Shown: positions 10,848 to 32,438 of the stretch, in pieces | Layout of the letters: each line of letters opens with the position of its first letter | Numbering within the stretch: the stretch's first letter is position 1 | Source of the DNA: Acidobacteriaceae bacterium | GTDB taxonomy: Bacteria > Acidobacteriota > Terriglobia > Terriglobales > Acidobacteriaceae | Direction of reading: 5' to 3' | DNA: 36,318 nucleotides | Assembly: GCA_003151875.1 (NCBI GenBank) | Contig: PLYW01000302.1 | Span: 1-36,318 of the forward strand | The notes under the pieces: generated by a model | Databases searched by the model: none | The model's input: only the letters and a program-made list of their open reading frames with translations | What the model was told of the DNA's origin: nothing | Translations under genes and position numbers: made by a program

Positions 10848-11399
10848 GTGATTGTGGGGAGGAGTATGTTGGCAAGGATGTCCATACTGAACGTATCGAG
10901 ATTTGTCGCGATAGTGTTGTGGTCGTCGCTGTGCCTGGGACAAGAGGTGCATGTTTCCCGAGGCGACGGCAGCGTTGTTCTGACCGTTGCGGCGCAGAAA
11001 CCCTACCCACTGGCCACGGGTCAGGAAAAATTGCCGACATTGAGCGTGTCATGTGTGCACAAGGGCAAGAAGACCGGACACAATATTGTATTTTCGGCAG
11101 GCGGTGCCCTGGTTGAAGACACTGACATGGATGCAAAAGGGGCACAGCAGATTTTCAAAATGACGATAGGCGGGACCGCGCAAACGACGGGATGGGTTCC
11201 CTACGGAAACACCATAACCTACGCCTATTTTGCCAATAATGACGCTGAGCGTGTGAAATTTATCCAGACCCTGCTCAACGCGGGAAAAGTTTTCATCGAG
11301 TTCAAGCCCTTTCTCACCGGTGCGCCAACCACCAGCGTTTTCGACCTGAGCAACCTCCGCGCTGAGATGGACAAATCTCCCGCGTGCGCCTTGCAATAG
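10848..11399 (+). CDS. Hypothetical secreted protein
   Basis: A signal-peptide-like N-terminus is present (SRFVAIVLWSSLCLGQE). GGAGG lies at ~10858. The start is uncertain (10848 GTG, 10866 ATG or 10878 ATG). I recognise no family. Confidence 0.6.
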   Translation: MIVGRSMLARMSILNVSRFVAIVLWSSLCLGQEVHVSRGDGSVVLTVAAQKPYPLATGQEKLPTLSVSCVHKGKKTGHNIVFSAGGALVEDTDMDAKGAQQIFKMTIGGTAQTTGWVPYGNTITYAYFANNDAERVKFIQTLLNAGKVFIEFKPFLTGAPTTSVFDLSNLRAEMDKSPACALQ

Positions 11400-11474
11400 T
11401 TCCGCGCCGCCAACGCCCTGCCAAATCCAAGAAGGTCCCATAACGCGCGTTGGCAGGTGGGTTATGCTTTAGCC

Positions 11475-12221: not shown

Positions 12222-12245
12222 CTGGACTGGGGTTTGAGCTAACAA

Positions 12246-13328: not shown

Positions 13329-13407
13329 GCGGTCTGACTGAGTACTGATAACTGACATAACTGACTGCCGGCAAGTGTTCTGCTACACTGCGATTTTCGA
13401 GGTCACC

Positions 13408-13707: not shown

Positions 13708-13726
13708 ACCTGCGGACAACTCGCGG

Positions 13727-15331
13727 GTGTCGAGCTTTCAGGGCCGCCTGCGCGAATACCTCTTCGCCTACGCGCTCATTTTTGTATTCCTGTTCGTCAC
13801 TCATGCTCCTTTACTGCGGCTGCCCTATTTCTGGGACGAAGCCGGCTACTTTATTCCGGCGGCGCGCGATCTTTTGCTCACCGGTTCACTGATTCCGCAC
13901 ACCACGCTCTCCAACGCACATCCACCCATGGTAATGCTGTGGCTGGCATTCTGGTGGAAGGCCAGTGGCTTCACCCCGGCAGTGACCCGAACTGCGATGT
14001 TGTTGATCGCTGCGTTCGCCCTGCTGGGGTTGTGGCGGCTTGCGCGCGACGTAGCCAATGAGCAGATCGCGGCCGCAACCGTCTTGTGCACGGCGGTCTA
14101 TTCCGTGTTCTTTGCGCAGAGCTCGATGGCCCACCTCGACATGATGGTTTGCGCCCTGACGCTTTGGGGACTGGCAATGTACGTGGAGCGCAGACCGGTG
14201 GCCACCATCGTGTTCTTGGCTCTTGCGCCTCTCGCCAAGGAGACCGCCATCGTAACCCCTCTGGCGTTGCTGGCTTGGGAAATACTTTGTCCCTTGCTGC
14301 AGCGGAGTACACGGCGACACGAACCGTTCTGCCTATATCAGCGCAACTGGCTGGCTGCCTTCTCGTTTCTGTTGTGCCTGGTCCCGCTCGCGCTGTGGTT
14401 CCTCTATCACCATCACCGGACCGGTTTCTACTTCGGCAATCCGGAGTACCTGCGCTACAACCTGCAAGCTACCCTCACTCCACTGCGCATCGTGCTTGCG
14501 ATCCTGATACGGCTCTGGCACGCGCTGGGCTATCTGAACCTGTTTGTACTGACGCTGGCCGCAGCCTTTGCCATGGGCCTTCCTCCGCTGCCGGGGCCCG
14601 ACGGCACACTGCGGCCCCGCATTCCCATCAATGTGCAACTCGTGTTTGGGGTGGTTATACTGGCGCATGTCATGGCCCTGTCAGCGCTCGGAGGCGCGGT
14701 GCTGGCTCGCTACATGCTTCCGGTTGTGCCGCTCGTGATCCTGCTTTGTGTTTCCACGCTGTGGCGTCGTGCCCAGCATTGGCCGTGGTGGATCGCATTG
14801 AGCTGCGTAGCTTTTGTGTTCGCGCTACTCACTCCGCCGCCCTATCGCATCGCTCCTGAGGACACATTGCTGTATCGCGATTACGTCATCGTCCATAAAC
14901 AGGCCGCCGATGAGTTGGCGGCCCGTTTCCCGCACGCACGTGTGCTCACGGCCTGGCCGGCTTCCGATGAGCTGACGCGGCCGTTCCTGGGATACGTCAA
15001 ACAGCCGCTTGCGGTGGCGCCCATCGAGAACTTCTCCGCCCTCGAAATCGAACGGGCTGCGCAAGCCACCGATCAGTTCGATGTGGCGCTGCTATTTCCC
15101 ACCAAGTGGCAGCCTCCGCATCCTCTGTTCCGGAGTTTGCCCTTCGGCGAAGAATTGCAGGAACGTTTCTTCGACTATCGCCAGGAGTTGGGTCCGCAAC
15201 AAGTGGCGAACATTCTCGGCGGGCGGACGGTGCGTTTCCTGAATCGTAACAACGAATGGGTCGCAATCGTCGTGATCGAGAAAGTCGAAAATGCGGGCGC
15301 TCGAGATTTGGAGTTGCGCCGCGCTCCCTAA
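13727..15331 (+). CDS. Polytopic membrane protein, ArnT/PMT-like GT-C fold glycosyltransferase (putative)
   Basis: It has more than 10 hydrophobic segments. An acidic first-loop motif (YFWDEAGYFIPAA) resembles the GT-C catalytic DE/DD loop. A soluble C-terminal domain of ~170 aa follows. The assignment is by pattern only. Confidence 0.6.
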   Translation: MSSFQGRLREYLFAYALIFVFLFVTHAPLLRLPYFWDEAGYFIPAARDLLLTGSLIPHTTLSNAHPPMVMLWLAFWWKASGFTPAVTRTAMLLIAAFALLGLWRLARDVANEQIAAATVLCTAVYSVFFAQSSMAHLDMMVCALTLWGLAMYVERRPVATIVFLALAPLAKETAIVTPLALLAWEILCPLLQRSTRRHEPFCLYQRNWLAAFSFLLCLVPLALWFLYHHHRTGFYFGNPEYLRYNLQATLTPLRIVLAILIRLWHALGYLNLFVLTLAAAFAMGLPPLPGPDGTLRPRIPINVQLVFGVVILAHVMALSALGGAVLARYMLPVVPLVILLCVSTLWRRAQHWPWWIALSCVAFVFALLTPPPYRIAPEDTLLYRDYVIVHKQAADELAARFPHARVLTAWPASDELTRPFLGYVKQPLAVAPIENFSALEIERAAQATDQFDVALLFPTKWQPPHPLFRSLPFGEELQERFFDYRQELGPQQVANILGGRTVRFLNRNNEWVAIVVIEKVENAGARDLELRRAP

Positions 15332-15392: not shown

Positions 15393-17912
15393 ATGGCACG
15401 CACCACCATCCTGGACTACCTCGATAACTTCCGCCGCCACGCTCGCGAGGTGGCCTACGCTCAACATCGCGGTTATCGCATGCAGCGATGGACGTACGGC
15501 GATGTGCTGAGCAACGCCTATCGCTTTGCGCGCGAGCTGGAGCAGCGCGGCATCGGCAAGGGCGACAAGGTCATTCTTTGGGGCGAGAACTGCGCGGAGT
15601 GGGTGGTCGCCTTTTTCGGATGCTTGCTGCGCGGCGCCATCGCGGTGCCCATTGACAAGATCGCGGCCCCGGATTTCGCCCAGCGTGTCGCCCAACAGGT
15701 GGATGCCAGGCTCTGTGTTGGCTCAATGCAGAACCACATCCCGGGCATCGCAGAGATCAACCTGGAAACCCTGCGCGAGCAACTCGCGGCGCTCTCCGAT
15801 CAGCCCGTGGCTCCCCCGCCGCTCACGCGCGACGATGTTGTGCAGATTGTCTTCACCTCCGGCACGACTGCCGAGCCGCGTGGTGTAGTCATTACTCATG
15901 GCAACATCCTGGCCAACTTGGAGCCGCTGGAGCGCGAGATCGGCGAATACCTCCGCTACGAGCGCATTTTTCATCCGCTGCGATTCTTGAATCTGCTGCC
16001 CCTCAGCCACGTCTTTGGGCAATTCCTCGGGATCTTCCTGCCGCAATTGCTGGCGGCCACCGTGATCTTCCAAGACACGCTGAACCCGACGGAAGTTCTG
16101 CATGCCATCAAGAAAGAACGCGTATCGGTGGTAGTCGCGGTACCGCGCCTGATGGAGTCGCTAAAAGACAAACTGCTGCGCGATTTCGACGCGGCGGGCC
16201 GGCAGGAGTGGTTCCAACGACAATTCGAAGCCGCAAACAACCAGCACTTCGTGCAACGCTGGTGGCGCTTCCGGAAAATTCACAACCAATTCGGATGGAA
16301 GTTTTGGGCCTTCATCTCGGGAGGCGCAGCGCTCGACGGCGAGACCGAAGAATTCTGGCGCCGTCTGAGCTTCGTGGTCATTCAGGGCTACGGCCTCACC
16401 GAGACAACGTCGCTGATCTCTCTAAATCATCCCTTTCGCACCGGCAAACGCTCGATTGGCAAAGTACTCGAGGGCCGCGAGATCAAGCTCGATGAGAACG
16501 GCGAAATCCTGGTGCGCGGTGCCAATGTCGCCGCCGGTTATTGGCAGGGAAAGGAACTGAAGCCGGTGTTGAATGAGGAAGGTTGGTTTCGCACTGGCGA
16601 CCTTGGCGAACTCGACGCGGAGGGCAATCTCTATTTCAAGGGCCGCAAGAAAAATGTCATCGTGACGCGCGAAGGGATGAACATTTATCCCGAGGACCTC
16701 GAAAATGCGCTGCGCCAGCCCGCGATACTCGACTGCGTCGTCGTCGGCCTGGAGCAGGGAGTCAACGCCGAGCCTTGCGCCGTTCTCATTCTGCGAGACT
16801 CGACCGATCCAGAGGCAGTCGTCAGGCGTGCCAACCAGCAGCTCGCGGAGTATCAGCAGATGCGCCGCTGGTTCGTGTGGCCCGAGCAGGACTTCCCGCG
16901 CACTCCCACGCTGAAGCCCAGGATCGCCGCCATCCAGCAGGCGGTGCAGCAACACTTCGCCTCGGGCAATGTCGGAGCCAGCGCGCCGAGGGGAGCTCTG
17001 GTGGACCTGATCGCGCGCATCACTGGACGCAGCACCGGCCCGCTCGCCCCCGATGCCAGGCTCGACGAAGATCTGGACCTTAGTTCCATGGACCGCGTCG
17101 AACTGATGAGCGCGCTGGAAGACCGTTACCAGGTCGATCTCAACGAGGCGAACTTCGCCAGCGTCAGCACGGTTGGCGATCTCGAACGTTTGCTGCGCGG
17201 GCCGCAGAAGTCGCCGCAGAGCGGCTATCGGTATCCGCGATGGGCGCAGCGCTGGCCTATCACCTGGATTCGCAACTTCATCTACTATCTGCTTACCTGG
17301 CCGGCGACCATGATCATGGCTCACCCCAAGATCGTTGGCCGCGAGAACCTGCGCGGTATCGACGGGCCGTTCCTCATCAGTTGCAATCACGTTACCTACA
17401 TCGATGTTGGCTTCGCGCTGATCGCGCTTCCGCCCCGGGTGCGGCACAAGCTCGCGGTTGGCATGTGGGGAGAGATGCTGTGGGAGATGTGGCGACCGCC
17501 TCAAACCTGGAATCCCTTCGTGCGTTTGGCGTATCGCGCCGGCTACTATCTGGTGGTTGCCCTGTTCAACGTCTTTCCGCTGCCGCAGCAGTCGGGCGTG
17601 CGCGAGAGTTTCGCCTACGCCGGTGAATCGGTGGACCGCGGCTACAGCGTTCTGGTTTACCCCGAAGGTGTGCGCACGCCGGATGGCAAGCCGTCGCCCT
17701 TCCGCTCGGGTGTCGGAATGCTGGCTTCAAGGCTGAACGTCCCGGTTGTTCCCATGCGCATCGATGGATTGTACCCGATGAAAATGGCCGGGCACAAAAT
17801 CGCGCGCCCCGGAGAGCTGGCGGTCGTGATCGGCAAGCCCATGCGCTTTCCGCCGGAAACCCCCGCGGAGGAAATCACCAAGCAGCTCGAACACATCACG
17901 TCGTCCATGTGA
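15393..17912 (+). CDS. Three-domain fusion: AMP-dependent (acyl) adenylase/ligase + carrier-protein domain + PlsC/LPLAT-type acyltransferase
   Basis: Adenylation motifs are TSGTTAEPRGV, GYGLTETT and TGDLGELDAEGNLYFKGRKKNVI. A carrier-like LDLSSMDRVELMSALE sits at residues ~561-576. Acyltransferase motifs are HX4D (NHVTYID) and YPEGVRTPDG. Confidence 0.85.
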   Translation: MARTTILDYLDNFRRHAREVAYAQHRGYRMQRWTYGDVLSNAYRFARELEQRGIGKGDKVILWGENCAEWVVAFFGCLLRGAIAVPIDKIAAPDFAQRVAQQVDARLCVGSMQNHIPGIAEINLETLREQLAALSDQPVAPPPLTRDDVVQIVFTSGTTAEPRGVVITHGNILANLEPLEREIGEYLRYERIFHPLRFLNLLPLSHVFGQFLGIFLPQLLAATVIFQDTLNPTEVLHAIKKERVSVVVAVPRLMESLKDKLLRDFDAAGRQEWFQRQFEAANNQHFVQRWWRFRKIHNQFGWKFWAFISGGAALDGETEEFWRRLSFVVIQGYGLTETTSLISLNHPFRTGKRSIGKVLEGREIKLDENGEILVRGANVAAGYWQGKELKPVLNEEGWFRTGDLGELDAEGNLYFKGRKKNVIVTREGMNIYPEDLENALRQPAILDCVVVGLEQGVNAEPCAVLILRDSTDPEAVVRRANQQLAEYQQMRRWFVWPEQDFPRTPTLKPRIAAIQQAVQQHFASGNVGASAPRGALVDLIARITGRSTGPLAPDARLDEDLDLSSMDRVELMSALEDRYQVDLNEANFASVSTVGDLERLLRGPQKSPQSGYRYPRWAQRWPITWIRNFIYYLLTWPATMIMAHPKIVGRENLRGIDGPFLISCNHVTYIDVGFALIALPPRVRHKLAVGMWGEMLWEMWRPPQTWNPFVRLAYRAGYYLVVALFNVFPLPQQSGVRESFAYAGESVDRGYSVLVYPEGVRTPDGKPSPFRSGVGMLASRLNVPVVPMRIDGLYPMKMAGHKIARPGELAVVIGKPMRFPPETPAEEITKQLEHITSSM

Positions 17913-18090: not shown

Positions 18091-18633
18091 ATGCGCGAAG
18101 CGGTACTTAAATTGTGGCCTGAGATCGAGTGGATTAAGGCGCCCGAGCTGCGTGAGCAGGTCACCAAGACCTGGCAGCGCGCCCTCGAACTCAGCCCGCT
18201 CACGCCAGACGACCTCAACCGCATCCCGTTCACCTTGCTGGTGCCAAACTGCCCCACGACTTTCATGGAGCACAAGCGCTGCGTGGTGCACATCGCGCGC
18301 ACGGCGGCCGAGAGCATGAAGGAATTTATGGGGCGCGCGCTGCCCATTGATATGGACACGGTGATTGCGGGCGCGATCCTGGCCGATGTCGGCAAGCTGC
18401 TGGAGTACGAAAACGTGGACGGCAAGACCCGCCAGAGCAAGCGCGGCGAGCTGCTGCGCCATCCCTTTACCGGCGTGGCGCTGGCGATGGAATGCGGAGT
18501 GCCCGACGCGGTGTGCCATATTATTGCGGCGCACGCCGCCGAAGGCGATCTGGTAAAGCGCACCACCGAGGCCTACATCGTGCACCACGCCGATTTCATG
18601 GCCTTTCTGCCGTTCAAGAACCTGGCGAAATAG
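18091..18633 (+). CDS. HD-superfamily domain protein (variant metal motif)
   Basis: The spacing is HD-domain-like: H (VVHIA), ADVGK where HDxGK is expected, H (LLRHPF), H (IIAAHAAEGD), D (VHHADF). ATG 18091 is preferred over TTG 18061. The gene ends 23 nt before the PrpD-family gene. Confidence 0.7.
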   Translation: MREAVLKLWPEIEWIKAPELREQVTKTWQRALELSPLTPDDLNRIPFTLLVPNCPTTFMEHKRCVVHIARTAAESMKEFMGRALPIDMDTVIAGAILADVGKLLEYENVDGKTRQSKRGELLRHPFTGVALAMECGVPDAVCHIIAAHAAEGDLVKRTTEAYIVHHADFMAFLPFKNLAK

Positions 18634-18656
18634 AAGAAAACGAGGAGAAGACTCTG

Positions 18657-20093
18657 ATGTCAACCACAACTGCGCCAGCGCCGAGCCAAGCGGCCGCCAA
18701 GCCGACGATCACGGCGATCATGGCGCAATGGGCCGCCGGTCTGAAGTTCGAGCAGCTCTCTCCAGACGCGGTGTATCAGGCCAAGCGCTTCTTGCTCGAC
18801 AGCATTGGCTGCGCGCTTGGCGGCTACCAGCAGCATGACGTCATGATCGCGTTGGGAGTGCTGAACGAAATTGCAGGTCGGAGCGGTGCAACTGTGATCG
18901 GCAGCGGCCAGCAGATGGATGTGGTGTCGGCGTCGCTGGCCAACGCGCTGATGATTCGCTGCATGGACTATAACGACATTTACTGGAAGCAGGACCCGTC
19001 GCATCCGTCGGACATTTTTTCCGCGGCAATGGCGGCCGGTGAGCGTGCCGGCAGCGATGGGCGCGAACTCATCGTCGGTCTGGTGCTGGGCCACGAATTT
19101 GAGATGCGTCTATGCGAAGCGGCCTTCCCCGGCATTCGCGAGCGCGGCTGGCATCATGCCACGTTGACCGCATTCGTCTCGCCGATCGTGGCCGGACGCA
19201 TGCTGTGCCTCAGCGCCGACCAAATTCAGCACGCCATCGGCATCGGCGCCAGCGCGCGCGCCACCCTGGGCGCAGTCACCGCCGGCAAACTGACCATGAT
19301 GAAGAACACCGTCGATCCCATGGCCACGCAGAGCGGCGTGCTGGCCGCCTTGCTGGCGGAAAAGGGATATACCGGCCCCGAGCATGTGATCGATGGTAAA
19401 GAAGGGTTGGTCCATTGCTTCGGGCCGGAGTGGAAGCTGAATATTCTGACCGACGGGCTGGGCGATTCGTGGCGTATCACGCAATGTGGGATGAAGGCGT
19501 TTCCCACCGAAGCCCTGACGCACACGCCAATCTCCGCTGTGCTTGCGCTGGTGAAGGACCACGACCTGAAGCCCAACGACATAGCCAAAGTACACATTCG
19601 CACCACGGCGCGCGGGGCCGACATTCTGAGCGATCCCAGCAAGTACGATCCTCATACCAAGGAGACAGCCGACCACTCGCTCCCATATGTCATTGCTGCT
19701 GCTATCGCCGAACGCCAAGTCACTCCCTTGCAGTTCACTCAGGCGAAGATCATGGACCCGGTGATCCGGGCCCAGCTCAGCAAGATCGCTGTCTCCGCCG
19801 ATCCCGAGATCGAGAAGGTCTTTCCGGCGCTACAGCGCGTGATCGTGATGATCCACACCATCGATGGCCGCGAGTTCACAACCCAGCTTGACTACCCCAA
19901 GGGCGATCCGCGAAATCCGCTGACCGACAAAGAAGTGGAAGAGAAGTTCGAAGCGCTGGCGGAGCCGGTGATGTCGCGCGAAGCCCGTCGTCGCGCCATG
20001 GACGCCATCTGGAACCTGGAGAAGCAGCCGAGCGTGACTGCGCTGATGAAGCTGTTCAAGGCTGACCGGCTACTGGCAGCGGGAGGTCATTGA
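18657..20093 (+). CDS. MmgE/PrpD-family protein (2-methylcitrate dehydratase-like)
   Basis: The 478 aa show the family pattern (AKRFLLDSIGCALGG, RCMDYNDIYW, HPSD, GWHHATL, KAFPTEALTHTPI, ADHSLPYVIAAA). The ATG at 18657 follows a GAGGAGAAG RBS. The ORF-track start at 18492 runs through the HD gene and is rejected. Confidence 0.88.
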   Translation: MSTTTAPAPSQAAAKPTITAIMAQWAAGLKFEQLSPDAVYQAKRFLLDSIGCALGGYQQHDVMIALGVLNEIAGRSGATVIGSGQQMDVVSASLANALMIRCMDYNDIYWKQDPSHPSDIFSAAMAAGERAGSDGRELIVGLVLGHEFEMRLCEAAFPGIRERGWHHATLTAFVSPIVAGRMLCLSADQIQHAIGIGASARATLGAVTAGKLTMMKNTVDPMATQSGVLAALLAEKGYTGPEHVIDGKEGLVHCFGPEWKLNILTDGLGDSWRITQCGMKAFPTEALTHTPISAVLALVKDHDLKPNDIAKVHIRTTARGADILSDPSKYDPHTKETADHSLPYVIAAAIAERQVTPLQFTQAKIMDPVIRAQLSKIAVSADPEIEKVFPALQRVIVMIHTIDGREFTTQLDYPKGDPRNPLTDKEVEEKFEALAEPVMSREARRRAMDAIWNLEKQPSVTALMKLFKADRLLAAGGH

Positions 20094-20094
20094 G

Positions 20095-22059
20095 ATGGGA
20101 CAGACCATCGTCGAAAAGATCGCGCAAGCACACATGTCCGAGGGGCCGAGCCGTCCTCTGCGCGCCGGTGACTTCCTTTCCATCCGGCCTTATCACGTGA
20201 TGACCCACGACAATACCTCGGCGGTCATGAAGAAATTCAAGGCCATCGGCGCGAAGAAGGTGCACGATCCGGCACAGCCGGTCATCACCGCCGATCACGA
20301 TATTCAGAACACGGAGGCGTCGAACCTGGCGAAGTATCGCAGCATGGAGGCGTTTGCGCGCGAGCAGGGCATCGACTTCTATCCGCCGGGCACCGGCATC
20401 GGCCACCAGATCATGGTGGAGAAGGGCTACGTGCTGCCCGGGACATTTGTCGTCGCCTCCGATTCGCACTCCAATATGTATGGCGCACTGGGCGCGATCG
20501 GGACGCCGGTGGTGCGCACCGACGCGGCGGCAATCTGGGCGACGGGTGAGTTCTGGTGGCAGATTCCACGCACCGTGCAGGTTGTGCTCGAAGGCCGGCT
20601 TGCGCCGGGTGCAACCGGCAAAGATGTGATCGTGACGTTGTGCGGACTCTACAACCGTGAAGAAGTGTTGAACGCCGCCGTCGAGTTCACCGGGCCGGGT
20701 GTGGCGTCGCTCAGCATGGATGCGCGACTGACCATCGCCAACATGTCCACCGAGTGGGGAACGTTGGTCGGCTGGTTCCCGGTGGACGAGGTTACGCTGC
20801 TTTACCTCGAAGCGCACAATGAAGAATTGCGGGCGCGGGGGATCACGCGTATTCCCCAAGAGAAATTTGAGGAGTGGCACACGAATCCTCCGGCTCCGGA
20901 CAACGACGCGACGTACGCGGGCCGGATCACGCTGGATCTGGCGGAGGTCACGCCGCATGTTTCGGGTCCGGACACGGTGCAGGTGATGCAGTCGGTCGCC
21001 GAAATCGCGAAAAAGAAAGTCGCCATCCAGAAGGCGTACCTGGTTTCGTGCGTGAACTCGCGGCTGGAAGACCTGGAGGCTGCGGCGAAGGTGCTGCACG
21101 GCAAGAAGGTCGCGGACGGTGTGCAGTTTTATCTTGCGGCGGCCAGTCGCGCGGTACAGGAAGAAGCGGAAAAGCGCGGCGTGTGGCAAACCTTGCTCGA
21201 CGCGGGCGCGCATTCGCTGCCGTCAGGATGTGGGCCGTGCATCGGCCTGGGTACGGGATTGCTCGAAGCGGGCGAGGTTGGTATCTCCGCCACCAATCGC
21301 AATTTCAAGGGGCGGATGGGTTCGCGCGATGCGCAGTGCTATCTTGGCAGTCCCGAAGTCGTCGCCGCTTCCGCCGTCGCCGGCTACATCTGTGGACCTG
21401 CGCAGGCCGAGTATCACGAACTGAAGAAACATTTTGAAGTGCTGGCCACGGGTTCGGCTTCGGCCGAGAAGGTCGAAATCCTGCCCGGGTTTCCGCAGCG
21501 CGTGCGGGGAAGGCTGATCTTCCTGCCGCAGGATAACCTGAATACCGACGGCATTTACGGCAAGGACTACACCTATCGTGAAGACATGACGCCGGAGATG
21601 ATGGCGGGCGTCGTGATGGAAAATTATGATCCGCAGTTTGCTGGGCGCACGCGTGAGGGGGACGTCATAGTCGGAGGCTTCAACTTCGGCACGGGTTCCA
21701 GCCGCGAGCAAGCGGTGACGGCGATGAAATGCAAAGGCATTCCGCTGGTGATTGCGGGTAGTTTCTCGCAGACTTATCTGCGCAACGCGTTCAATAACGG
21801 ATTTCTCTGCATCGAGACGCCGGAGCTGGTGAGCCGGCTGCGCGCAAAGTCTTCCGACGCGGTCGCGCGCAAGGAAAAGACGATTATTCCGGGGGACGAG
21901 GTCGAGGTTGATTTTTCCGCCAGCATCATACGTTACGCAGGCGAGCAGTTCGCCTTCCCGGCGCTGGGCAGCGTGCCGCAGTCGCTGGTGATTGCAGGCG
22001 GAGTGGAGAACCTGGTGAGCCAAAAGCTGGGGCTGAGCACGGTGACGGCGCAGATTTAG
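20095..22059 (+). CDS. Aconitase-family hydro-lyase with fused large and small subunits (LeuC/LeuD- or homoaconitase-like)
   Basis: Large-subunit motifs are ASDSHSN, VSCVNSR and SGCGPCIG, providing the three Fe-S cysteines. A small-subunit part follows (LNTDGIYGKDY, GFNFGTGSSREQA). It starts 1 nt after the PrpD-family stop. Confidence 0.9.
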   Translation: MGQTIVEKIAQAHMSEGPSRPLRAGDFLSIRPYHVMTHDNTSAVMKKFKAIGAKKVHDPAQPVITADHDIQNTEASNLAKYRSMEAFAREQGIDFYPPGTGIGHQIMVEKGYVLPGTFVVASDSHSNMYGALGAIGTPVVRTDAAAIWATGEFWWQIPRTVQVVLEGRLAPGATGKDVIVTLCGLYNREEVLNAAVEFTGPGVASLSMDARLTIANMSTEWGTLVGWFPVDEVTLLYLEAHNEELRARGITRIPQEKFEEWHTNPPAPDNDATYAGRITLDLAEVTPHVSGPDTVQVMQSVAEIAKKKVAIQKAYLVSCVNSRLEDLEAAAKVLHGKKVADGVQFYLAAASRAVQEEAEKRGVWQTLLDAGAHSLPSGCGPCIGLGTGLLEAGEVGISATNRNFKGRMGSRDAQCYLGSPEVVAASAVAGYICGPAQAEYHELKKHFEVLATGSASAEKVEILPGFPQRVRGRLIFLPQDNLNTDGIYGKDYTYREDMTPEMMAGVVMENYDPQFAGRTREGDVIVGGFNFGTGSSREQAVTAMKCKGIPLVIAGSFSQTYLRNAFNNGFLCIETPELVSRLRAKSSDAVARKEKTIIPGDEVEVDFSASIIRYAGEQFAFPALGSVPQSLVIAGGVENLVSQKLGLSTVTAQI

Positions 22060-22113
22060 TGGCTGTCCCACAATGTGGGACATAGAGCGGTTGACGGTTA
22101 ATGTGCGTAATAG

Positions 22114-22167
22114 GGGTCCTTCGACTCCGGCGGCCAAAAACGGGCTGTCTTCGCTCAGGATGACAAA
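22114..22167 (-). repeat. Degenerate unit of the TTGTCATCC interspersed repeat (minus orientation)
   Basis: The minus strand reads tttgtcatcctgagcgaagacagcccgtttttggccgccggagtcgaaggacccc. It shares the TTGTCATCC head and the GAAGGA tail with the other units. It lies in the only sizeable spacer of the metabolic cluster. Confidence 0.35.
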
Positions 22168-22210
22168 TCCATCCGGCGGAATACTCGGTTGTGCAGAGGA
22201 GTTGGCATCC

Positions 22211-23437
22211 ATGGCAAAACATAAAGTCGTGTCCATGCCGGGCGATGGCATTGGCAATCAGGTCCTGCCCGAGGCGATTCGCGTGCTCGACGCCGTCGGT
22301 TTCGAGGCTGAGTACGTACACGCCGATATCGGTTGGGAGTGCTGGACCAAGGAAGGTAATGCTCTTCCCGAGCGCACCATCGAGCTACTGCGCCAGCACA
22401 AGGTCGGTCTGTTCGGCGCCATCACCTCGAAGCCGAAGAAGGAAGCCGAGGCCGAGTTGAGCCCTGCATTACGCGGCAAAGGCCATCAGTATTTCAGCCC
22501 AATTGTTTCCATGCGACAGATCTTCAACCTCGACGTGTGCATGCGACCGTGCCTGTCGTTTCCCGGCAATCCGCTTAACTTCATCCGCAAAAAGCCGTCT
22601 GGCGGGTACGAGGAGCCCAAAGTGGACGTGGTGGTCTTCCGGCAGAACACGGAAGGATTGTATGCGGGAGTGGAGTGGACGAATCCTCCGCAACCAGTAC
22701 GTGACGCATTGCGCACCCACCCGAAGTTCAAGCCCTTCGCCAACGTTGCCGGTGAGGACCTGGCGATTTCGGTACGCATCATTACTCGTCCGGCGGCGCG
22801 ACGGATTTGCGAGACCGCATTCCTTCATGCGCGCAAGCACGACTACAAATCGGTGACCATCTGCGAGAAGCCCAATGTGCTGCGCGAAACTTCGGGCATG
22901 ATGGAAGAAGCTGCCAAGGAAGTACAGAAGCAGTACAGCGACATTGCGCTGTGGTCCACCAACATCGACGCGCAAACCATGTGGCTGACCAAGAACCCGG
23001 AAGAGTATGGCGTGATCGTGGCCAGCAACTTGTTCGGCGATGTCATCAGCGACGCGTTCGCGGGACTGGTTGGCGGGCTTGGGTTTGCGGCTTCCGGCAA
23101 CGTCGGTCAGGAGGTTGCGGTGTTCGAGCCCACGCATGGATCAGCTCCCAAGTATGCCGAGTTAAATCCAGCAATCGTCAACCCGATTGCTATGATTCTT
23201 TCGGCGGCGATGATGCTCGATCATCTCGGCGAGAACGACAAGGCGCGCAGAATTCGCGATGCTATCGCGGCGGTTGTGGCCGAAGGCCAAGTGCGTACCT
23301 ATGACATGATGCGGCTCTCCGGCGGGACGAAATCGCTGGCCCAGGGCGCGGCCTCGACAACGCAGATGACAGACGCCATCCTGGCGAAGCTGGGGGTGAC
23401 AGTGGAGAAGGCTTATGCCGGCAGTGGCAGGAATTAG
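22211..23437 (+). CDS. Isocitrate/isopropylmalate-family beta-decarboxylating dehydrogenase
   Basis: Family motifs are MPGDGIGNQV, VVFRQNTEGLYAG, NLFGDVISD and FEPTHGSAP. The ATG at 22211 follows a GAGGAG RBS. The ORF-track start at 22073 is rejected because it reads through a repeat. Confidence 0.9.
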   Translation: MAKHKVVSMPGDGIGNQVLPEAIRVLDAVGFEAEYVHADIGWECWTKEGNALPERTIELLRQHKVGLFGAITSKPKKEAEAELSPALRGKGHQYFSPIVSMRQIFNLDVCMRPCLSFPGNPLNFIRKKPSGGYEEPKVDVVVFRQNTEGLYAGVEWTNPPQPVRDALRTHPKFKPFANVAGEDLAISVRIITRPAARRICETAFLHARKHDYKSVTICEKPNVLRETSGMMEEAAKEVQKQYSDIALWSTNIDAQTMWLTKNPEEYGVIVASNLFGDVISDAFAGLVGGLGFAASGNVGQEVAVFEPTHGSAPKYAELNPAIVNPIAMILSAAMMLDHLGENDKARRIRDAIAAVVAEGQVRTYDMMRLSGGTKSLAQGAASTTQMTDAILAKLGVTVEKAYAGSGRN

Positions 23438-24656
23438 CACATTACGACGAGGCGAGGCGGGACGCGCCGGCGACGACATTCGCTCCGACTTGCACGTCAG
23501 CTTCGAAGAACGCGCCAGCGGCGGGATTGAGATCGGCCTGCGCTCGCGCGTTGAGCTGTATTACGGCGAGGTCATCCGGCGGCAGGTGTGCGACGTCCTG
23601 TGCACGCTGGGCGTCGAGCATGCGCTAATCGGGATCATGGACGAAGGCGCGCTGCCATTCGTGATCGCAGCGCGCATCGAGGCAGGGGTGCGCCGCGCTG
23701 GACTCGCGCAAGGCAAGTCAGCGCTGCCAGAGGCGGTAACGCTTGCGGCGCCGTCGCTGCGAGACCGTCTGCGGCGCTCCCGCCTTTATCTTCCGGGCAA
23801 TGAACCCAAATATTTCATCAACGCCGGACTGCATGGGCCGGACGCGGTCATTCTCGACCTGGAAGATTCGGTGCACTATGCCGAGAAAGACGCGGCGCGG
23901 CTGCTGGTTCGCAATGCGCTACGGGCCGTGGATTTCGGTACCGCGGAACGCATGGTCCGGATCAATCAGCTTCCGCTCGGTCTGGCCGACCTGGAAGAGA
24001 TTGTTCCGCAGTCGCCCGATGTCATCCTGATTCCGAAAGTCGAAGCCGCTGCGCAGATATCTGACGTTGTGGGAGCTGTTGATTCGATCACGCAACGAGT
24101 GGGCGTCACGCGTCCCATCTGGCTGATGCCGATTCTCGAATCCGCGCTGGGCATCGAGAATGCGTTCGCCATCGCGACCGCTTCGGGGCGCATTGCCGCC
24201 ATCACTCTCGGATTGGAGGACTACACCGCCGATCTCGGAGTTGCCAAGACCGCAGGCGGAAGCGAGTCGCTCTATGCCCGCCAGCGCGTGGTGAATGCCG
24301 CCCACGCCGCCCACGTGCAGGCCATTGACTCCGTGTATGGTGACGTAGTCGACACCGACGGACTGCTGCACTGGGGCGAGGCTTCATGCGCCATGGGGTT
24401 TGAAGGCATGGGATGTATTCACCCGGTGCAAATTGAAATCATTCATCGCGCCTTTGCGCCTGCGCCAAACGAGCTAGAGAAGGCGCAGGCAATCGTTGCG
24501 GCCTTCGAAGAGGCGCAAGCTCGCGGACTTGCCGTGGTGAGCCTCGGGTCCAAGATGATTGACGCTCCCGTAGTGCAGCGCGCAGTGAAGTTGGTCGCAC
24601 GCGCCAGGAAGATGGGCATCATCGCCGATCAGGCGTCAGCAGGAGATCCATCATGA
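23415..24656 (+). CDS. citE: Fusion of a citrate lyase acyl-carrier (CitD, gamma)-like domain and a CitE (beta, citryl-CoA lyase / HpcH-HpaI aldolase) domain
   Basis: Residues ~1-95 align without gaps to E. coli CitD as I recall it (IEIGLRSRVELYYGEVI..., MDEGALPFVIAARIEAG). Residues ~115-413 are CitE-like (RRSRLYLPGNEPKY, DAVILDLEDSV, MVRINQL). The start overlaps the dehydrogenase gene by 23 nt. Confidence 0.85.
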   Translation: MPAVAGISTLRRGEAGRAGDDIRSDLHVSFEERASGGIEIGLRSRVELYYGEVIRRQVCDVLCTLGVEHALIGIMDEGALPFVIAARIEAGVRRAGLAQGKSALPEAVTLAAPSLRDRLRRSRLYLPGNEPKYFINAGLHGPDAVILDLEDSVHYAEKDAARLLVRNALRAVDFGTAERMVRINQLPLGLADLEEIVPQSPDVILIPKVEAAAQISDVVGAVDSITQRVGVTRPIWLMPILESALGIENAFAIATASGRIAAITLGLEDYTADLGVAKTAGGSESLYARQRVVNAAHAAHVQAIDSVYGDVVDTDGLLHWGEASCAMGFEGMGCIHPVQIEIIHRAFAPAPNELEKAQAIVAAFEEAQARGLAVVSLGSKMIDAPVVQRAVKLVARARKMGIIADQASAGDPS

Positions 24657-26260
24657 GCGCGGGCGTGGCAAGCGGCTTAGTCACGAACGCTGCCGGCCGG
24701 CGAGTGCCAACTCATGTCAACGGTCGCGAACAGGCGCCATACCAAGGAGTCAATCAACACACGCCCTTGGGAAATAAAGCCGGCCCGCCGATTCGCAGCA
24801 GCAGCGAGTATCCCACAAACGGGGACAAGCGCCTCCCCGACTTGGAAACCGCGCTGCGCCTCTGCGGACTGCGTGATGGCACGACCATCAGCAGCCATCA
24901 CCATCTGCGCAATGGAGACCGGGTCGCGCTCACCGCGTTGCAAACCGCCGCGCGCATGGGCGCCAAGGAGCTGGTCTGGTTTCCCAGCGCGTCGTTTCCG
25001 TGCCACGAGCCGGTGATCGATCTGATGAAGTCTGGCGCGGTGCATCACATCGAAGGCAGCATGAATGGGCCGCTCGGCGATTATTGCTCGCACGGACACA
25101 TGCGCGGCCTGGGAGTGTTGCGCTCGCACGGGGGACGATGGCAGGCGGTGCAGGATGGTGAAGTCCACATTGACATCGCGGTGATTGCCGCGCCCACGGC
25201 GGACTTCTTCGGCAATGCCGATGGCTCGCACGGAAGGTCGGCATGCGGTTCGCTGGGATTTGCGCTCGCCGATTCCGTTTATGCCGATCGCGTCATCGTT
25301 GTAACCGACAATCTGGTGCCGTTCCCTTGCATTCCCTGGCAGATCCAGGGCAACAACGTTGACTACGTGGTCGAGGTTGACTCCATCGGCGATCCTTCAC
25401 TGATTGTGAGCGGCACTACGCAGATCACGCGCAGTCCCGATCGCCTGCGAATCTCCGAGCTGGTGGCGCGCTTTCTGCGCGACAGCGGCATCATGCGCGA
25501 TGGCTTCTCCTTCCAGGCGGGCGCGGGTGGCATCGCGCTGGCGTTTGTGGATTACCTGGCTGGCATGATGAAACAAGCCAACGTGAGAGCGAGCTTCGTG
25601 CGCGGAGGCTCAACCAAGTATCTGGTCGATCTGCTCAACGAAGGTCTCATCGGATACATTCTCGACGGGCAGACGTTCGACTTGGATGCCGTGCATTCGA
25701 TCGCCAGCAACGCTCGTCATGTGGCCACCAGTCCGTTCACTTCGTACAACTTTCACGGCAAGGGCAACTTTGCTTCCATGGTTGACGCCGCCGTGCTAGG
25801 CGCAACCGAGGTTGACGTCAACTTCAATGCAAATGTCGTGACCCACTCGGACGGGCGGTTGCTGCACGGAATTGGCGGCTGGCAGAACTGCCTGTTCGCA
25901 GGATGCACGATTCTTGCGGTCCCGTCGTTCCGCGATCGCATTCCGGTGATCGTTGACGAAGTGACTACGGTGACCGGGCCGGGTGAACTGATCGACGTGG
26001 TTGCGACCGAACGCGGCATTGCCATCAATCCACGGCGGCAGGACTTACTCGACGCGGTGAAGGGCAAAGGACTGCCGATTCGTTCCATCGAAGAACTGCA
26101 AGCCGAAGTGGAGAAGATCTGCGGCGGCAAACCAGCCAAGCCCCGGCTCCTTGACCGTCCCGTGGCCGTCGTGAAGTGGGTAGATGGAACCGTGCTCGAC
26201 ACTGTGTGGCAGGTGGTGGACGACAATCCCTACGCGCCCAAGGTCAGCGGTGGCGAGTAA
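24653..26260 (+). CDS. citF: Citrate lyase alpha subunit / citrate CoA-transferase (CitF)-like protein
   Basis: The sequence is CitF-like throughout (LRDGTTISSHHHLRNGD, SHGGRWQAVQDGEVHIDIAVIAAPTADFFGNADG, QAGAGGIALA). An ATGA start/stop overlap links it to the CitDE gene. Confidence 0.88.
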   Translation: MSAGVASGLVTNAAGRRVPTHVNGREQAPYQGVNQHTPLGNKAGPPIRSSSEYPTNGDKRLPDLETALRLCGLRDGTTISSHHHLRNGDRVALTALQTAARMGAKELVWFPSASFPCHEPVIDLMKSGAVHHIEGSMNGPLGDYCSHGHMRGLGVLRSHGGRWQAVQDGEVHIDIAVIAAPTADFFGNADGSHGRSACGSLGFALADSVYADRVIVVTDNLVPFPCIPWQIQGNNVDYVVEVDSIGDPSLIVSGTTQITRSPDRLRISELVARFLRDSGIMRDGFSFQAGAGGIALAFVDYLAGMMKQANVRASFVRGGSTKYLVDLLNEGLIGYILDGQTFDLDAVHSIASNARHVATSPFTSYNFHGKGNFASMVDAAVLGATEVDVNFNANVVTHSDGRLLHGIGGWQNCLFAGCTILAVPSFRDRIPVIVDEVTTVTGPGELIDVVATERGIAINPRRQDLLDAVKGKGLPIRSIEELQAEVEKICGGKPAKPRLLDRPVAVVKWVDGTVLDTVWQVVDDNPYAPKVSGGE

Positions 26261-30748: not shown

Positions 30749-32320
30749 ATGGCTACCGTTTCTAATCTCTCTCCGCCAGAAGATCGCCAGAGTCCGGCCC
30801 GCTGGTATGCCAGTGGCTTTGCGGTGGTCGCCTTGATTGTTGCGGCGCGACTGTCGCTCCACCTGCTGACCGCCAACCGCTACGGCATTTTTCGCGACGA
30901 ACTCTATTACGTCGCCTGCAGCCGGCATCTGGACTGGGGCTACGTGGACATGCCGCCGTTCATTCCGGCGGTGACGTGGCTGTTCACTTCCCTGTTTGGG
31001 GCTTCGCTGTTTGTTATCCGCCTCATCCCGGCAATCGCGGGCTGCGGCGCCATCGCCCTGACCGGGTATCAGGCGTACCAGTTCGGCGGACGGCGCTTCG
31101 CAATGGCGCTGTCAGGTTTGGCGATGGCGGTTTCCGCCGTCTTCGTCATCAACGGCCACCTGCTGGGGACGAACGATTTCGAGGCGTTGTTCTGGATGGG
31201 CTGCGCTTCCGTCGTCATCCGCATCATCCAGACCGGCAATCAGAAATTGTGGCTGTGGTTCGGCGTGCTGGCGGGCATCGGTCTCGAAAACAAGTATTCG
31301 ATGGCCGTGTTCGGCCTGGGCATCGTCGTGGGATTGCTGTTCACGCCGGAACGCAAGGCTTTCACTCACAGGTGGATCTGGATCGCCGGCGGAATCGCAT
31401 TTCTGATTTTCCTGCCCAACTTGCTATGGAATGTTCACCGCGACTGGCCGTTTGTGCAGTTGCTGCACAACATCCACGCCAGCGGCCGCGACGTTGAACT
31501 TAATCCCGTCGACTTCTTCCTGCGGCAGGTCCTGATGGTGAATCCCTTCGCCCTTCCGTTGTGGCTGGCGGGATTGGGGTGGCTGTTCTTTGGCCGCGAA
31601 GGGCGGCCCTACCGCGTTCTGGGCTGGGCGTACCTGGTCACGTTCGGGGTCTTCATGGTTCTGCATGGCAAGGATTACTACGTTGCTCCGGCGTATCCCA
31701 TGCTCTTCGCGGCCGGCGCCGTGGTCTGCGAGCAATGGATCGAGCGCACCGGGCACAAATGGCTGAAACCCGCGTTTGCTCTGGTGCTCGTGGTTCCGGC
31801 GCTGGTGTTCTTGCCACTCATTGCGCCGGTCATCAGCCCCCCGCAGTTCGTCGCGTTCACGCGGGCCATTCATTTCGCGCCACCCATCAGCGAGCACAGT
31901 CACGCTCGCTCTCCGCTGCCGCAGTATTATTCCGACGAGCTTGGCTGGGAAGCCATGGTCGCCGAGGTGGCCCGCGTGTATCACAGCCTGCCGCCCGAGG
32001 TGCAGGCCAGGACTGCCATCAAGACGAGCGATTACGGACAGGCTGGCGCGATTGACTATTTCGGTCCGAAGTATGGTTTGCCCAATGCGGTGTGCTTTCA
32101 TCAGAACTACTGGTACTGGGGCGTTCATGGCTACACCGGCGAGAGCATCATCGTGCTCGGGGAAGGCAATCCCGCGCATCTTAAGAGCATCACCGAGTAT
32201 GCCGAAAAGGTGGGACACTTTGAGTATCCCTACGCGCTGGAGGATTTTGACATCTGGTATGTCCGCGGGCTGAAAATGAGCTTGCACGACATTTGGGAAC
32301 ATGAGAAAGACTGGGACTAG
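30749..32320 (+). CDS. Glycosyltransferase family 39 (ArnT/PMT-like) membrane protein
   Basis: This polytopic protein has the first-loop motif YGIFRDELYYVACSRHLDWGYVDMPP, typical of bacterial GT39/PMT_2 proteins. A C-terminal soluble region follows. Confidence 0.8.
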   Translation: MATVSNLSPPEDRQSPARWYASGFAVVALIVAARLSLHLLTANRYGIFRDELYYVACSRHLDWGYVDMPPFIPAVTWLFTSLFGASLFVIRLIPAIAGCGAIALTGYQAYQFGGRRFAMALSGLAMAVSAVFVINGHLLGTNDFEALFWMGCASVVIRIIQTGNQKLWLWFGVLAGIGLENKYSMAVFGLGIVVGLLFTPERKAFTHRWIWIAGGIAFLIFLPNLLWNVHRDWPFVQLLHNIHASGRDVELNPVDFFLRQVLMVNPFALPLWLAGLGWLFFGREGRPYRVLGWAYLVTFGVFMVLHGKDYYVAPAYPMLFAAGAVVCEQWIERTGHKWLKPAFALVLVVPALVFLPLIAPVISPPQFVAFTRAIHFAPPISEHSHARSPLPQYYSDELGWEAMVAEVARVYHSLPPEVQARTAIKTSDYGQAGAIDYFGPKYGLPNAVCFHQNYWYWGVHGYTGESIIVLGEGNPAHLKSITEYAEKVGHFEYPYALEDFDIWYVRGLKMSLHDIWEHEKDWD

Positions 32321-32438
32321 TTCGGCAACCGTGCACAGCGGAGCAGGCGGCGTTGCTCCGAAAGAACAGGCGCGGTCAAAGCGCTTTGCCCGCAAGGGCC
32401 GGATAGCACCGCCCGCGAACCGGAGCTACGCTGTGACC

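Follow-up and report, generated by a model that had tools for sequence, protein, structure and literature searches.

Which pathway is encoded by a gene cluster in which relatives of citrate lyase are packed together with an MmgE/PrpD-family protein, an aconitase-family hydratase and a dehydrogenase of the isocitrate/isopropylmalate family? This question is raised by positions 18091 to 26260 of a 36,318-nucleotide stretch of DNA from an Acidobacteriaceae bacterium (contig PLYW01000302.1 of assembly GCA_003151875.1), the whole of which is called the window here. Our analysis supports the idea that the six genes of this cluster form a closed module made up of a CoA transfer, an aldol step, a split isomerisation and an NADP-linked decarboxylation or carboxylation, and we regard this architecture as very probable. 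The complete reading, i.e. a reversible module that extends or shortens a 2-oxo acid by an acetyl/acetate unit via a citrate-like tertiary hydroxy acid, with homocitrate as the substrate, is put forward as a plausible but tentative proposal.

In the proposed module, the free hydroxy acid would receive CoA from acetyl-CoA by the action of CitF, and the CitE domain would cleave the acyl-CoA to acetyl-CoA and a 2-oxo acid, or form it from them, on free CoA. The MmgE/PrpD-family protein, or in other bacteria a hydratase that we call HydB, would dehydrate the tertiary alcohol to a cis-enoate, and the Lys4-type Fe-S hydratase HydA, or HydC in its place, would rehydrate the enoate to the iso form. 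Finally, the NADP-type dehydrogenase would oxidatively decarboxylate the iso form, or serve as a reductive carboxylase in the reverse direction, and the HD metalloprotein would be an obligatory partner to which we assign no reaction. The net result would be that a 2-oxo acid, together with an acetyl/acetate unit, is converted to the 2-oxo acid with one more carbon, and back. The logic of dehydration, rehydration and oxidative decarboxylation had already been recognized in the initial annotation of this DNA, and it is supported by our results.

All six genes lie on the forward strand, and the families of the open reading frames were assigned by Pfam and NCBIfam profile searches. The first gene encodes an HDIG/HD-domain metalloprotein (18091-18633, 180 aa; NCBIfam HDIG). 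It is followed by the MmgE/PrpD-family protein (PrpD-like protein; 18657-20093, 478 aa; PF03972 and PF19305), the putative dehydratase of the tertiary-alcohol (citrate-type) intermediate, and by an aconitase-family [4Fe-4S] hydratase with fused large and small parts that belongs to the 'HydA' clade of the fungal Lys4 type (20095-22059, 654 aa; PF00330 and PF00694). The second half of the cluster consists of the NADP-type beta-decarboxylating dehydrogenase of the isocitrate/isopropylmalate family (22211-23437, 408 aa; PF00180), a protein in which a degenerate CitD-like acyl carrier protein (ACP) domain (residues ~20-96) is fused to a CitE-type C-C lyase domain (residues ~118-401; 23415-24656, 413 aa in total; PF06857 and PF03328; CitDE in the following), and a CitF-type acyl/CoA transferase (24653-26260, 535 aa; PF04223, E = 2e-128). 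At the family level, these assignments match those of the initial annotation, and the tight packing of the genes that it had described can be read directly from the sequence: the HD stop codon and the ATG of the PrpD-like gene are 23 nt apart, with GAGGAG as the ribosome-binding site, only 1 nt lies between the TGA of the latter and the ATG of the hydratase gene, the reading frames of the dehydrogenase and CitDE overlap by 23 nt, and the CitDE stop and CitF start share an ATGA. Some gene callers place the start of the dehydrogenase at 22160 (425 aa); judged by the ribosome-binding site and the N-termini of the homologues, we favour 22211.

The cluster is highly conserved in related bacteria. 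As relatives, we used 80 species-level genomes, those that gave the best hits with the CitD-CitE fusion; almost all of them are metagenome-assembled genomes (MAGs) of Terriglobales, Acidobacteriaceae or Candidatus Korobacteraceae, and the window, too, comes from a Terriglobales/Candidatus Korobacteraceae genome. The six genes are present in identical order and on the same strand in 73 of the 80 loci, with variable flanking genes, and six of the seven loci that do not contain the full set are truncated contigs. The median identities are 92% for the HD protein, 88% for the PrpD-like protein, 84% for the hydratase, 88% for the dehydrogenase, 80% for CitDE and 90% for CitF.

In distant phyla, a core made up of the dehydrogenase, the HD protein, at least one hydratase, the CitD-CitE fusion and CitF recurs in different arrangements. 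The hydratases of these loci fall into three clades, HydA, HydB and HydC, with 30-40% identity between clades. In Calditrichota (L088, L094), the genes for TrmB, the dehydrogenase, HD, HydB, CitDE and CitF are clustered; an Anaerolineales-like MAG (L089) carries CitDE, CitF, dehydrogenase, HD and HydC, with PrpD further on, and a WOR-3 locus (L092) has HD, HydB, HydC, CitDE and CitF. Dehydrogenase, HD, HydA, PrpD, CitDE and CitF are found in L090 and L095, dehydrogenase, HydB, HydC, CitDE and CitF in L091, CitDE, CitF, dehydrogenase, HD, HydB and HydC in L093, and HydA, PrpD, CitDE and CitF in L097. Moreover, metagenomes were scanned with two short peptide patterns of the dehydrogenase, which matched more than 600 stretches; 80 of these dehydrogenase-centred loci were examined, 23 of which are well flanked, i.e. 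by 7 kb or more on either side. Among the 23, the HD gene is present in 21, CitDE together with CitF in 12 and PrpD in nine.

Could the cluster nevertheless be a fortuitous neighbourhood of unrelated housekeeping genes? The unit of dehydrogenase, HD and hydratase genes is found without CitDE and CitF in about half of the dehydrogenase-centred loci, with housekeeping genes or genes for secreted proteins as neighbours that give no functional clue, and in the window a 151-nt gap with an operator-like palindrome splits the cluster; both observations would suit a chance arrangement. Against this idea stand the order that is kept in 73 of the 80 genomes despite changing flanks, the fact that the genes are re-assorted yet clustered in several phyla, and the start and stop codons that overlap or abut. 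Co-conservation of the genes, on which the initial annotation had made its proposal depend, is seen both in the relatives and, by reclustering of the parts, across phyla. The comparative data effectively refute fortuitous adjacency, for which we see a negligible probability.

CitF, CitE and the CitD-like domain

CitF and the CitE domain are recognizable relatives of the citrate lyase subunits. CitF reaches 488.3 bits with the equivalog model of the alpha subunit (TIGR01584), just below the cut-off of 501.45, and shares 39% of its residues with E. coli (Escherichia coli) CitF and 61-72% with the cluster homologues of other phyla. The CitE domain, which contains the HpcH_HpaI Pfam domain, is 38% identical to E. 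coli CitE and scores 271.7 bits with TIGR01588 (cut-off 443.4). A search of 1.84 billion representative proteins revealed more than 60 diverged clusters of CitD-CitE fusions at 50% identity. On two single polypeptides (P0161, 943 aa, and P0217, 927 aa) CitF, the CitD-like domain and CitE are joined in that order.

The CitD-like domain differs from a classical carrier at the position of the carrier serine. Ser14 of CitD is the attachment site of 2'-(5''-phosphoribosyl)-3'-dephospho-CoA. The model of the citrate lyase gamma subunit PRK13253 (98 positions) aligns residues 22-95 of the window protein with positions 13-86 and thus sets Arg23 at Ser14, and the direct alignment with E. coli CitD does the same. 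Among 65 fused homologues, this column holds Arg in 36 and Lys in 23 cases (59 of 65 together) and Ser in only three; the next residue varies (S/G/N/A), and an Asp at +2 is nearly invariant. In a Bacteroidota MAG (L096, 2-1810), in which the dehydrogenase and hydratase genes are absent nearby and only CitDE and CitF are found, two ADP-ribosylglycohydrolase-family genes lie directly upstream of this pair; it is a single case, and an intriguing one given the Arg or Lys in place of the carrier serine.

The initial annotation had also noted that citC, citG and citX as well as a citrate transporter are missing. In tblastn searches with E. coli queries for citC, citG, citX and citT, there was no match in the 36-kb window and 86 related loci (±10 kb) at E ≤ 1e-3 nor in ten distant loci at E ≤ 1e-5, so that the absence extends to 96 loci, and the metagenome loci searched were negative, too. 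The idea that citC, citG and citX are located just outside the window was rejected since they are absent from the 36 kb here and from the ±10 kb in the relatives. They would not be needed nearby because the CitD-like domain carries Arg at the position of Ser14 and is not a classical carrier. The lyase is probably carrier-free, with CitF and CitE acting on free CoA esters. In citrate lyase, the alpha and beta subunits are known to act on acetyl-CoA and citryl-CoA when isolated (EC 2.8.3.10 and EC 4.1.3.34).

Proposed isomerase components, dehydrogenase and HD protein

The PrpD-like protein had initially been annotated as a PrpD-type dehydratase. Its membership in the family was confirmed (PF03972/PF19305), but orthology to 2-methylcitrate dehydratase was not: all models for this enzyme score at most 82 bits with cut-offs of at least 458, the best of them being NF006943 with 82 versus 575 bits. 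An ordinary PrpD was rejected because the scores are so far under the cut-offs, and neither prpB nor prpC is present in the window. The nearest relatives of solved structure are the IDS epimerase (134 bits), IRG1 of Bacillus subtilis and cis-aconitate decarboxylase (CAD), and true PrpD proteins reach at most 60 bits. Of the eight active-site residues of human CAD (D93, T97, H103, H159, K207, K272, H277 and Y318), five are kept, i.e. D93, H103, H159, K207 and K272; T97 is replaced by Ile, H277 by Glu and Y318, in a poorly aligned region, probably by Ile. For the IDS epimerase and methylsuccinate isomerase, a mechanism that relies on His99 and Tyr145 as its two bases has been described (PMC12290011). 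His99 is conserved in the PrpD-like protein, whereas the second base Tyr145 and also His85 are replaced by Arg. This pattern fits a one-base enolate enzyme that would act on a substrate with an additional carboxylate.

It may be asked whether such a protein opens a branch instead, as a decarboxylase that converts cis-(homo)aconitate to an itaconate-like product or as an isomerase that catalyzes an epimerisation. The nearest solved relatives and the five retained CAD residues are compatible with such activities, and a single enolate mechanism is common to the dehydratases, decarboxylases and isomerases of the MmgE/PrpD family (PMC12290011). On the other hand, three of the CAD residues (the third one probably) and the second base of the epimerase are lost, other phyla swap the PrpD-like protein for the hydratase HydB and not for any decarboxylase, and the PrpD-like gene ends 1 nt from the hydratase start and is accompanied by CitDE and CitF in eight of nine well-flanked loci. 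We consider a branch at this point highly improbable.

HydA of the window is the best defined of the hydratases. It scores 743.1 bits with the homoaconitase model TIGR00139 (cut-off 529.9) and stays below the cut-offs of the aconitase and LeuC models, and the three cysteines of the Fe-S cluster are present (VSCVNSR, SGCGPCIG). HydA is the only clade to exceed an equivalog cut-off; HydB and HydC are recognized only at the hacA_fam/IPMI_arch subfamily level. Members of the cluster are labelled 'homoaconitase' by NCBI.

The main evidence for the function of the PrpD-like protein comes from the company that it keeps. In the 80 dehydrogenase-centred loci, PrpD is accompanied by HydA in 25 of 25 cases and never by HydB, and the pairs PrpD plus HydA (or PrpD plus HydC) alternate with HydB plus HydC. 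A hydratase of the HydA or HydC type without a partner was observed in four of the 11 well-flanked loci that lack CitDE and CitF but in none of the 12 that contain them, and ten of these 12 have, besides CitDE and CitF, PrpD or HydB as a second isomerase component. Since the PrpD-like protein and HydB alternate, they would do the same job, one that is tied to the CitE/CitF step, and it is mainly because of this alternation with a second aconitase-family hydratase that we assign a dehydratase role to the PrpD-like protein. The alternation of the PrpD-like protein plus a Lys4-type hydratase with a pair of other aconitase-family hydratases points to a putative split isomerase. There is precedent for such a division: the fungal Lys4 and Thermus homoaconitases interconvert only homoaconitate and homoisocitrate, and a second enzyme is needed for the dehydration of homocitrate (PMC3556520).

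In the cluster studied here, the need for a second component would stem from stereochemistry. CitE-type lyases form and cleave (S)-carbinols such as (3S)-citryl-CoA and (S)-citramalyl-CoA, and the substrates of the aconitase types in the elongation pathways are made by synthases of the LeuA, CimA and homocitrate synthase (HCS) types, for instance (R)-citramalate and (R)-homocitrate. PrpD sets the precedent for a dedicated dehydratase that handles a synthase product which aconitase is unable to dehydrate. A second component would be required because the configuration expected from a CitE-type enzyme should not be dehydratable by aconitase-type enzymes. The gene content, the coupling and co-conservation of the genes, the loss of the serine, the alternation of the enzymes and the residue patterns are observed directly; this rationale, the CoA dependence, the division of labour, the substrate and the direction are what we infer.

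The dehydrogenase is 64-69% identical to the cluster homologues of other phyla and belongs to a distinct conserved clade with 64-77% identity across phyla. It stays below the cut-offs of all models for isocitrate dehydrogenase (IDH), homoisocitrate dehydrogenase (HICDH), isopropylmalate dehydrogenase (IPMDH) and tartrate dehydrogenase (TDH); the best matches are AksF/HICDH-like (AksF2 with 283 versus 540 bits, AksF with 270 versus 500). In the profile-based assignment for which the initial annotation had called, the hydratase thus matches the Lys4-type homoaconitase at the equivalog level, and the dehydrogenase reaches no equivalog cut-off. The catalytic residues of E. coli Icd, R119, R129, R153, Y160, K230, D283, D307 and D311, are all kept, not only in the window protein but also in seven homologues of other loci. 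The same holds true for the NADP determinants K344, Y345, V351, Y391 and R395 (R or K at the last position), and R292 is replaced by Asn. The substrate loop reads Y-F-S-P-I-V-S-M-R in the window and Y-F/Y-S-P-I-V-x-M/L-R in the clade; it is preceded by an invariant 'TSKPK...' insertion, and the 'YAG(I/V)EW' insertion of E. coli Icd is present as well. In the phmmer alignment, from which the loop was read since the gap placement of MAFFT misaligns both positions, Ser113 of Icd is kept and Asn115 is replaced by Ile throughout the clade; Arg85 of the Thermus HICDH corresponds to Val. Judged by these residues, we regard the enzyme as an NADP-type dehydrogenase of a distinct clade.

The HD protein is the neighbour that is most tightly linked to the dehydrogenase. 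It exceeds the cut-off of the NCBIfam HDIG model (32.7 versus 27.6); the window protein has no Pfam match even at E ≤ 1, and the orthologue in one of the Calditrichota loci (L088) matches PF01966. The AlphaFold2 model (pLDDT 92) has an HD fold, with YhaM, PgpH and 1xx7 as the best Foldseek matches. The protein is 82-99% identical to those of the 73 six-gene loci, and its invariant residues are H61, D99, H124, H148, E151, H165 and D168. In the HD dyad, the window protein has Ala instead of His ('LADVGK'); the PrpD clusters with HydA or HydC have Ala or Ile and the HydB clusters have His at this position, and the other putative metal ligands are invariant. We regard the HD protein, on the strength of its linkage, as an integral part of the module.

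Substrate series and known pathways

Which series of acids passes through this module? The statement of the initial annotation that the substrate cannot be deduced from the sequence still holds, and the homocitrate, citrate and alkylmalate series all stay in play. We slightly favour homocitrate and 2-oxoadipate over the citrate or citramalate series. According to this tentative assignment, 2-oxoglutarate, homocitrate, cis-homoaconitate, homoisocitrate and 2-oxoadipate would be interconverted in that order. HydA above the cut-off of the Lys4-type model, the precedent for a split isomerase and the AksF/HICDH-like best models of the dehydrogenase favour this series, and the additional Arg at two positions of the PrpD-like active site would suit a tricarboxylate. 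Rough estimates from textbook transformed Gibbs energies place the overall conversion of acetate, a 2-oxo acid and NADP+ to the next 2-oxo acid, CO2 and NADPH near equilibrium; condensation appears kinetically implausible at micromolar oxaloacetate but feasible at millimolar pyruvate or 2-oxoglutarate.

Several observations weigh against the homocitrate reading or parts of it. By sequence, the PrpD-like protein is closer to epimerases and decarboxylases than to PrpD. The specificity loops in the small domains of HydA, HydB and HydC lack the Arg used by aconitase and methanogen homoaconitase (R580 and R26, respectively). The dehydrogenase has neither Asn115 of IDH nor Arg85 of HICDH, its Ile and Val form an IPMDH-like hydrophobic pattern, and it carries NADP residues whereas the known HICDHs use NAD. 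No LeuA/HCS-type synthase was found in the 80 dehydrogenase-centred metagenome loci, and a LysW-like gene was absent from about 180 loci. The citrate-synthase-family neighbours in two loci and the near-equivalog score of CitF favour citrate. In the window's own clade, Ser24, one residue past Arg23, is invariant, so that a shifted attachment site is possible there. Finally, the search of the PDB by sequence and the Foldseek search revealed nothing beyond a generic HD fold for the HD protein.

Some of these points can be accommodated if the module handles citrate, i.e. if a carrier-free citrate lyase, an aconitase function in two parts and an unusual NADP isocitrate dehydrogenase interconvert citrate and 2-oxoglutarate, either to cleave citrate once 2-oxoglutarate has been reductively carboxylated (for example from glutamate to acetate and oxaloacetate, or in a flux like that of the reductive tricarboxylic acid (TCA) cycle) or for the supply of 2-oxoglutarate. 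CitF is close to the cut-off of the citrate lyase alpha subunit and 39% identical to the E. coli protein, the dehydrogenase shares the 'YAG(I/V)EW' insertion, Ser113 and the NADP determinants with E. coli Icd, and the absence of a LeuA/HCS-type synthase from the 80 dehydrogenase-centred loci speaks for this series. In L130, a gene for a full-length citrate synthase (5690-6892) lies beside the HydC and dehydrogenase genes, and in L099 a member of the dehydrogenase clade has a family-III CoA-transferase and a truncated citrate-synthase-like protein of 254 aa that resembles citryl-CoA lyase as neighbours (11273-13346). Moreover, L097 encodes a DASS/CitMHS-family di/tricarboxylate transporter (13723-15215) on the strand opposite to the adjoining CitF gene; no other transporter was seen beside the module. 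In Ignavibacterium album, CitF and a CitE-CitD fusion (IALB_1146/1147) were described as an 'ATP-independent citrate lyase', with the role left open between the fermentation of citrate and a reverse TCA cycle of an unconventional kind (PMC3362086). According to this description, on which our comparison rests, the fused architecture is the same; the loss of the serine, linked dehydrogenase, HD or hydratase genes and a wide distribution are not mentioned there.

The citrate series runs into difficulties of its own, however. Throughout the clade, Ile occupies the position of Asn115, by which the gamma-carboxylate of isocitrate is bound, and the IDH and aconitase equivalog models are well below their cut-offs, whereas the cut-off of the homoaconitase model is passed. 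With the prochiral citrate, an ordinary aconitase manages without a partner, yet a second component is present in ten of the 12 loci with CitDE and CitF. The citrate-synthase-family neighbours are convergently oriented single cases, and a cross-search for such genes near the cluster gave none in any other locus. By our own estimate with textbook values, the formation of citrate from acetate and oxaloacetate would be unworkable at micromolar oxaloacetate, which leaves cleavage as the only physiological direction. In sum, we judge citrate to be an unlikely substrate.

The substrate loop of the dehydrogenase brings the C5 or branched alkylmalate series into view. In this scheme, CitF and CitE would act on (S)-citramalate and (S)-citramalyl-CoA, the PrpD-like protein or HydB would form citraconate, HydA or HydC would form 3-methylmalate, and the dehydrogenase would deliver 2-oxobutyrate, so that pyruvate would be converted to 2-oxobutyrate for isoleucine, or the reverse; another 2-alkylmalate would be conceivable as well. 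The Ile and Val of the loop stand where IPMDH has Leu90 and Leu91, and the HydB loop (YL[TSAV][IV]TD) is without Arg and resembles 'YLVY' of the archaeal isopropylmalate isomerase (IPMI). The preference of CitE-type enzymes for the (S)-isomer and of LeuCD-type enzymes for the (R)-isomer would explain the extra dehydratase, and by our estimate millimolar pyruvate makes the condensation feasible. Moreover, citramalate lyase is the only other known enzyme of the CitDEF type, but its clostridial clusters retain CitC, CitX and CitG, unlike the cluster here (PMC4682846). At the equivalog level, HydA is a homoaconitase and not an IPMI, the additional Arg in the PrpD-like site suggests a third carboxylate, the LeuB and LEU3 models stay under their cut-offs, and the dehydrogenase is of the NADP type. 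These points make the alkylmalate series doubtful. A substrate outside the homocitrate, alkylmalate and citrate series is improbable, too.

For the homocitrate series, an attractive but rather speculative extension, less likely than the assignment itself, can be formulated. The module would be a synthase-free, thioester-saving elongation in which the carrier-free CitE/CitF pair joins free acetate and 2-oxoglutarate to (S)-homocitrate with catalytic acetyl-CoA, the PrpD-like protein acts as 'homocitrate dehydratase' for the half-reaction beyond the reach of Lys4-type homoaconitases, and the NADP-linked step leads to 2-oxoadipate. The bacterial hydratase clade would be the closest relative of Lys4, and an ATP-saving route of central metabolism would be widespread in soil Acidobacteria and uncultured anaerobes.

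The conclusion that the cluster is not a standard operon for citrate lyase, the TCA cycle, the methylcitrate cycle, leucine or aminoadipate, already drawn in the initial annotation, stands up to comparison with these systems. As in citrate lyase (CitDEF of E. coli and Klebsiella; EC 4.1.3.6), adjacent and translationally coupled genes encode homologues of CitF and CitE and a CitD-like domain, and the reactions to be expected are an acyl exchange and, after it, the cleavage of an acid resembling citrate by the aldol type of reaction; unlike in citrate lyase, Arg replaces the carrier serine, CitD is fused to CitE, and citC, citX, citG and a citrate transporter are not nearby. Moreover, aconitase-, IDH-, PrpD- and HD-family genes set the cluster apart from the canonical cit operons. 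It shares with the alpha-aminoadipate route (Lys20/21, Aco2, Lys4 and Lys12 in fungi; HCS, aconitase, HacAB and HICDH in Thermus) the Lys4-type homoaconitase, the isomerisation by two enzymes (PMC3556520) and a beta-decarboxylating dehydrogenase. However, CitE and CitF stand in place of homocitrate synthase and an MmgE/PrpD protein or HydB in place of aconitase, the dehydrogenase is NADP-type without Arg85, and neither LysW nor other downstream genes were seen in the loci.

The methylcitrate cycle (PrpC-PrpD-AcnB-PrpB) also combines an MmgE/PrpD-family protein with an aconitase-family hydratase, but the protein studied here is no PrpD orthologue, PrpB and PrpC are lacking, and the sequence would end in an oxidative decarboxylation rather than with a lyase that acts on the iso form. 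With the AksA/AksDE/AksF and LeuABCD pathways, the module shares the three-step logic, the hacA_fam/IPMI_arch relationship of the hydratases and AksF as the best model of the dehydrogenase; it differs by the lyase/transferase pair in place of the synthase, by two isomerase components and by passing only the Lys4-type cut-off. The free citryl-CoA-like intermediate would be reminiscent of the citryl-CoA synthetase/citryl-CoA lyase and ATP-citrate lyase reactions of the reductive TCA cycle, as is the citrate-synthase-like neighbour in L099; in contrast to these systems, activation would occur by CoA transfer and not by ATP, and the lyase has the HpcH/HpaI rather than the citrate synthase fold.

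We found no description in the literature of the cluster, of its missing serine or of a homoaconitase, a homoisocitrate dehydrogenase and a citrate lyase together. All parts belong to known families. The public annotations of the genes disagree ('citrate lyase', 'homoaconitase', '2-methylcitrate dehydratase', 'isocitrate' or 'isopropylmalate' dehydrogenase), and metabolic reconstructions are likely to mis-assign the module, for example to citrate fermentation or a step of the reverse TCA cycle. The gene set is abundant. It occurs in several anaerobic phyla that are poorly known and in peat Acidobacteria, which are dominant in the carbon turnover of thawing permafrost. If the proposal is correct, the module would contain a member of the citrate lyase family with no need of a phosphoribosyl-dephospho-CoA carrier, an MmgE/PrpD-family protein of new activity, a new specificity class of isocitrate/isopropylmalate dehydrogenases, an unexplained HD-domain partner and a candidate for the bacterial origin of the fungal homoaconitase. 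It would also bear on an old gap, namely which enzyme dehydrates homocitrate when homoaconitase is unable to do so.

The intergenic gap and neighbouring genes

The only real gap of the cluster (22060-22210, 151 nt) separates the hydratase and dehydrogenase genes. Directly after the hydratase stop codon it contains the perfect 17-nt palindrome GTCCCACAATGTGGGAC (22065-22081, without strand assignment), which is operator-like, occurs once in the window and is found with 0-3 mismatches upstream of the dehydrogenase gene in most of the related Terriglobales loci. This suggests that a conserved operator may serve the half of the cluster that comprises the dehydrogenase, CitDE and CitF. A hairpin terminator was ruled out, since the stem of the palindrome would have 8 bp and its loop 1 nt, and a U-tract is lacking. 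The initial annotation had reported a repeat unit in this gap; indeed, in addition to the palindrome there is one arm of a dispersed unit that resembles repetitive extragenic palindromic (REP) elements, TTGTCATC[AC][CT]GAGCG[CA]AG (22149-22166, reverse strand). Four intergenic copies are present in the window (1035-1052, 1097-1114, 3163-3180 and 22149-22166; 0.06 expected), and those at 1035 and 1097, between mreB and mreC, form an inverted repeat with 42-nt arms. No riboswitch or other RNA family was found in an Rfam scan of the whole window, the gap included, and neither a sigma-70-like promoter nor a terminator in the gap was detected by a scan that is uninformative for this organism.

The cluster is flanked by housekeeping genes in the window (mreBCD-pbp2-rodA and genes for RNase E/G, MoaD-MoaE and electron transfer flavoprotein), and contigs identical to the window exist in JGI and ENA peat metagenomes and in GCA_003161595.1. 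An 839-aa protein with AMP-binding, phosphopantetheine-binding and acyltransferase domains is encoded 178 nt upstream on the same strand (15393-17912). Of the 80 relatives, 41 have this upstream neighbour, which is probably lipid-related and no part of the module. In L090 and L095 (4919-5275 and 7372-8358) and in L097 (11333-11695), genes for PF05635 proteins (23S rRNA-intervening-sequence protein) and a Fic/RhuM gene are located between cluster genes. Finally, two gene fusions are present in the window outside of the cluster, one of MoaD(ThiS) and MoaE (11457-12221) and one that joins an Ada Zn-binding domain, an AraC helix-turn-helix domain and an O6-methylguanine methyltransferase (32301-33485).

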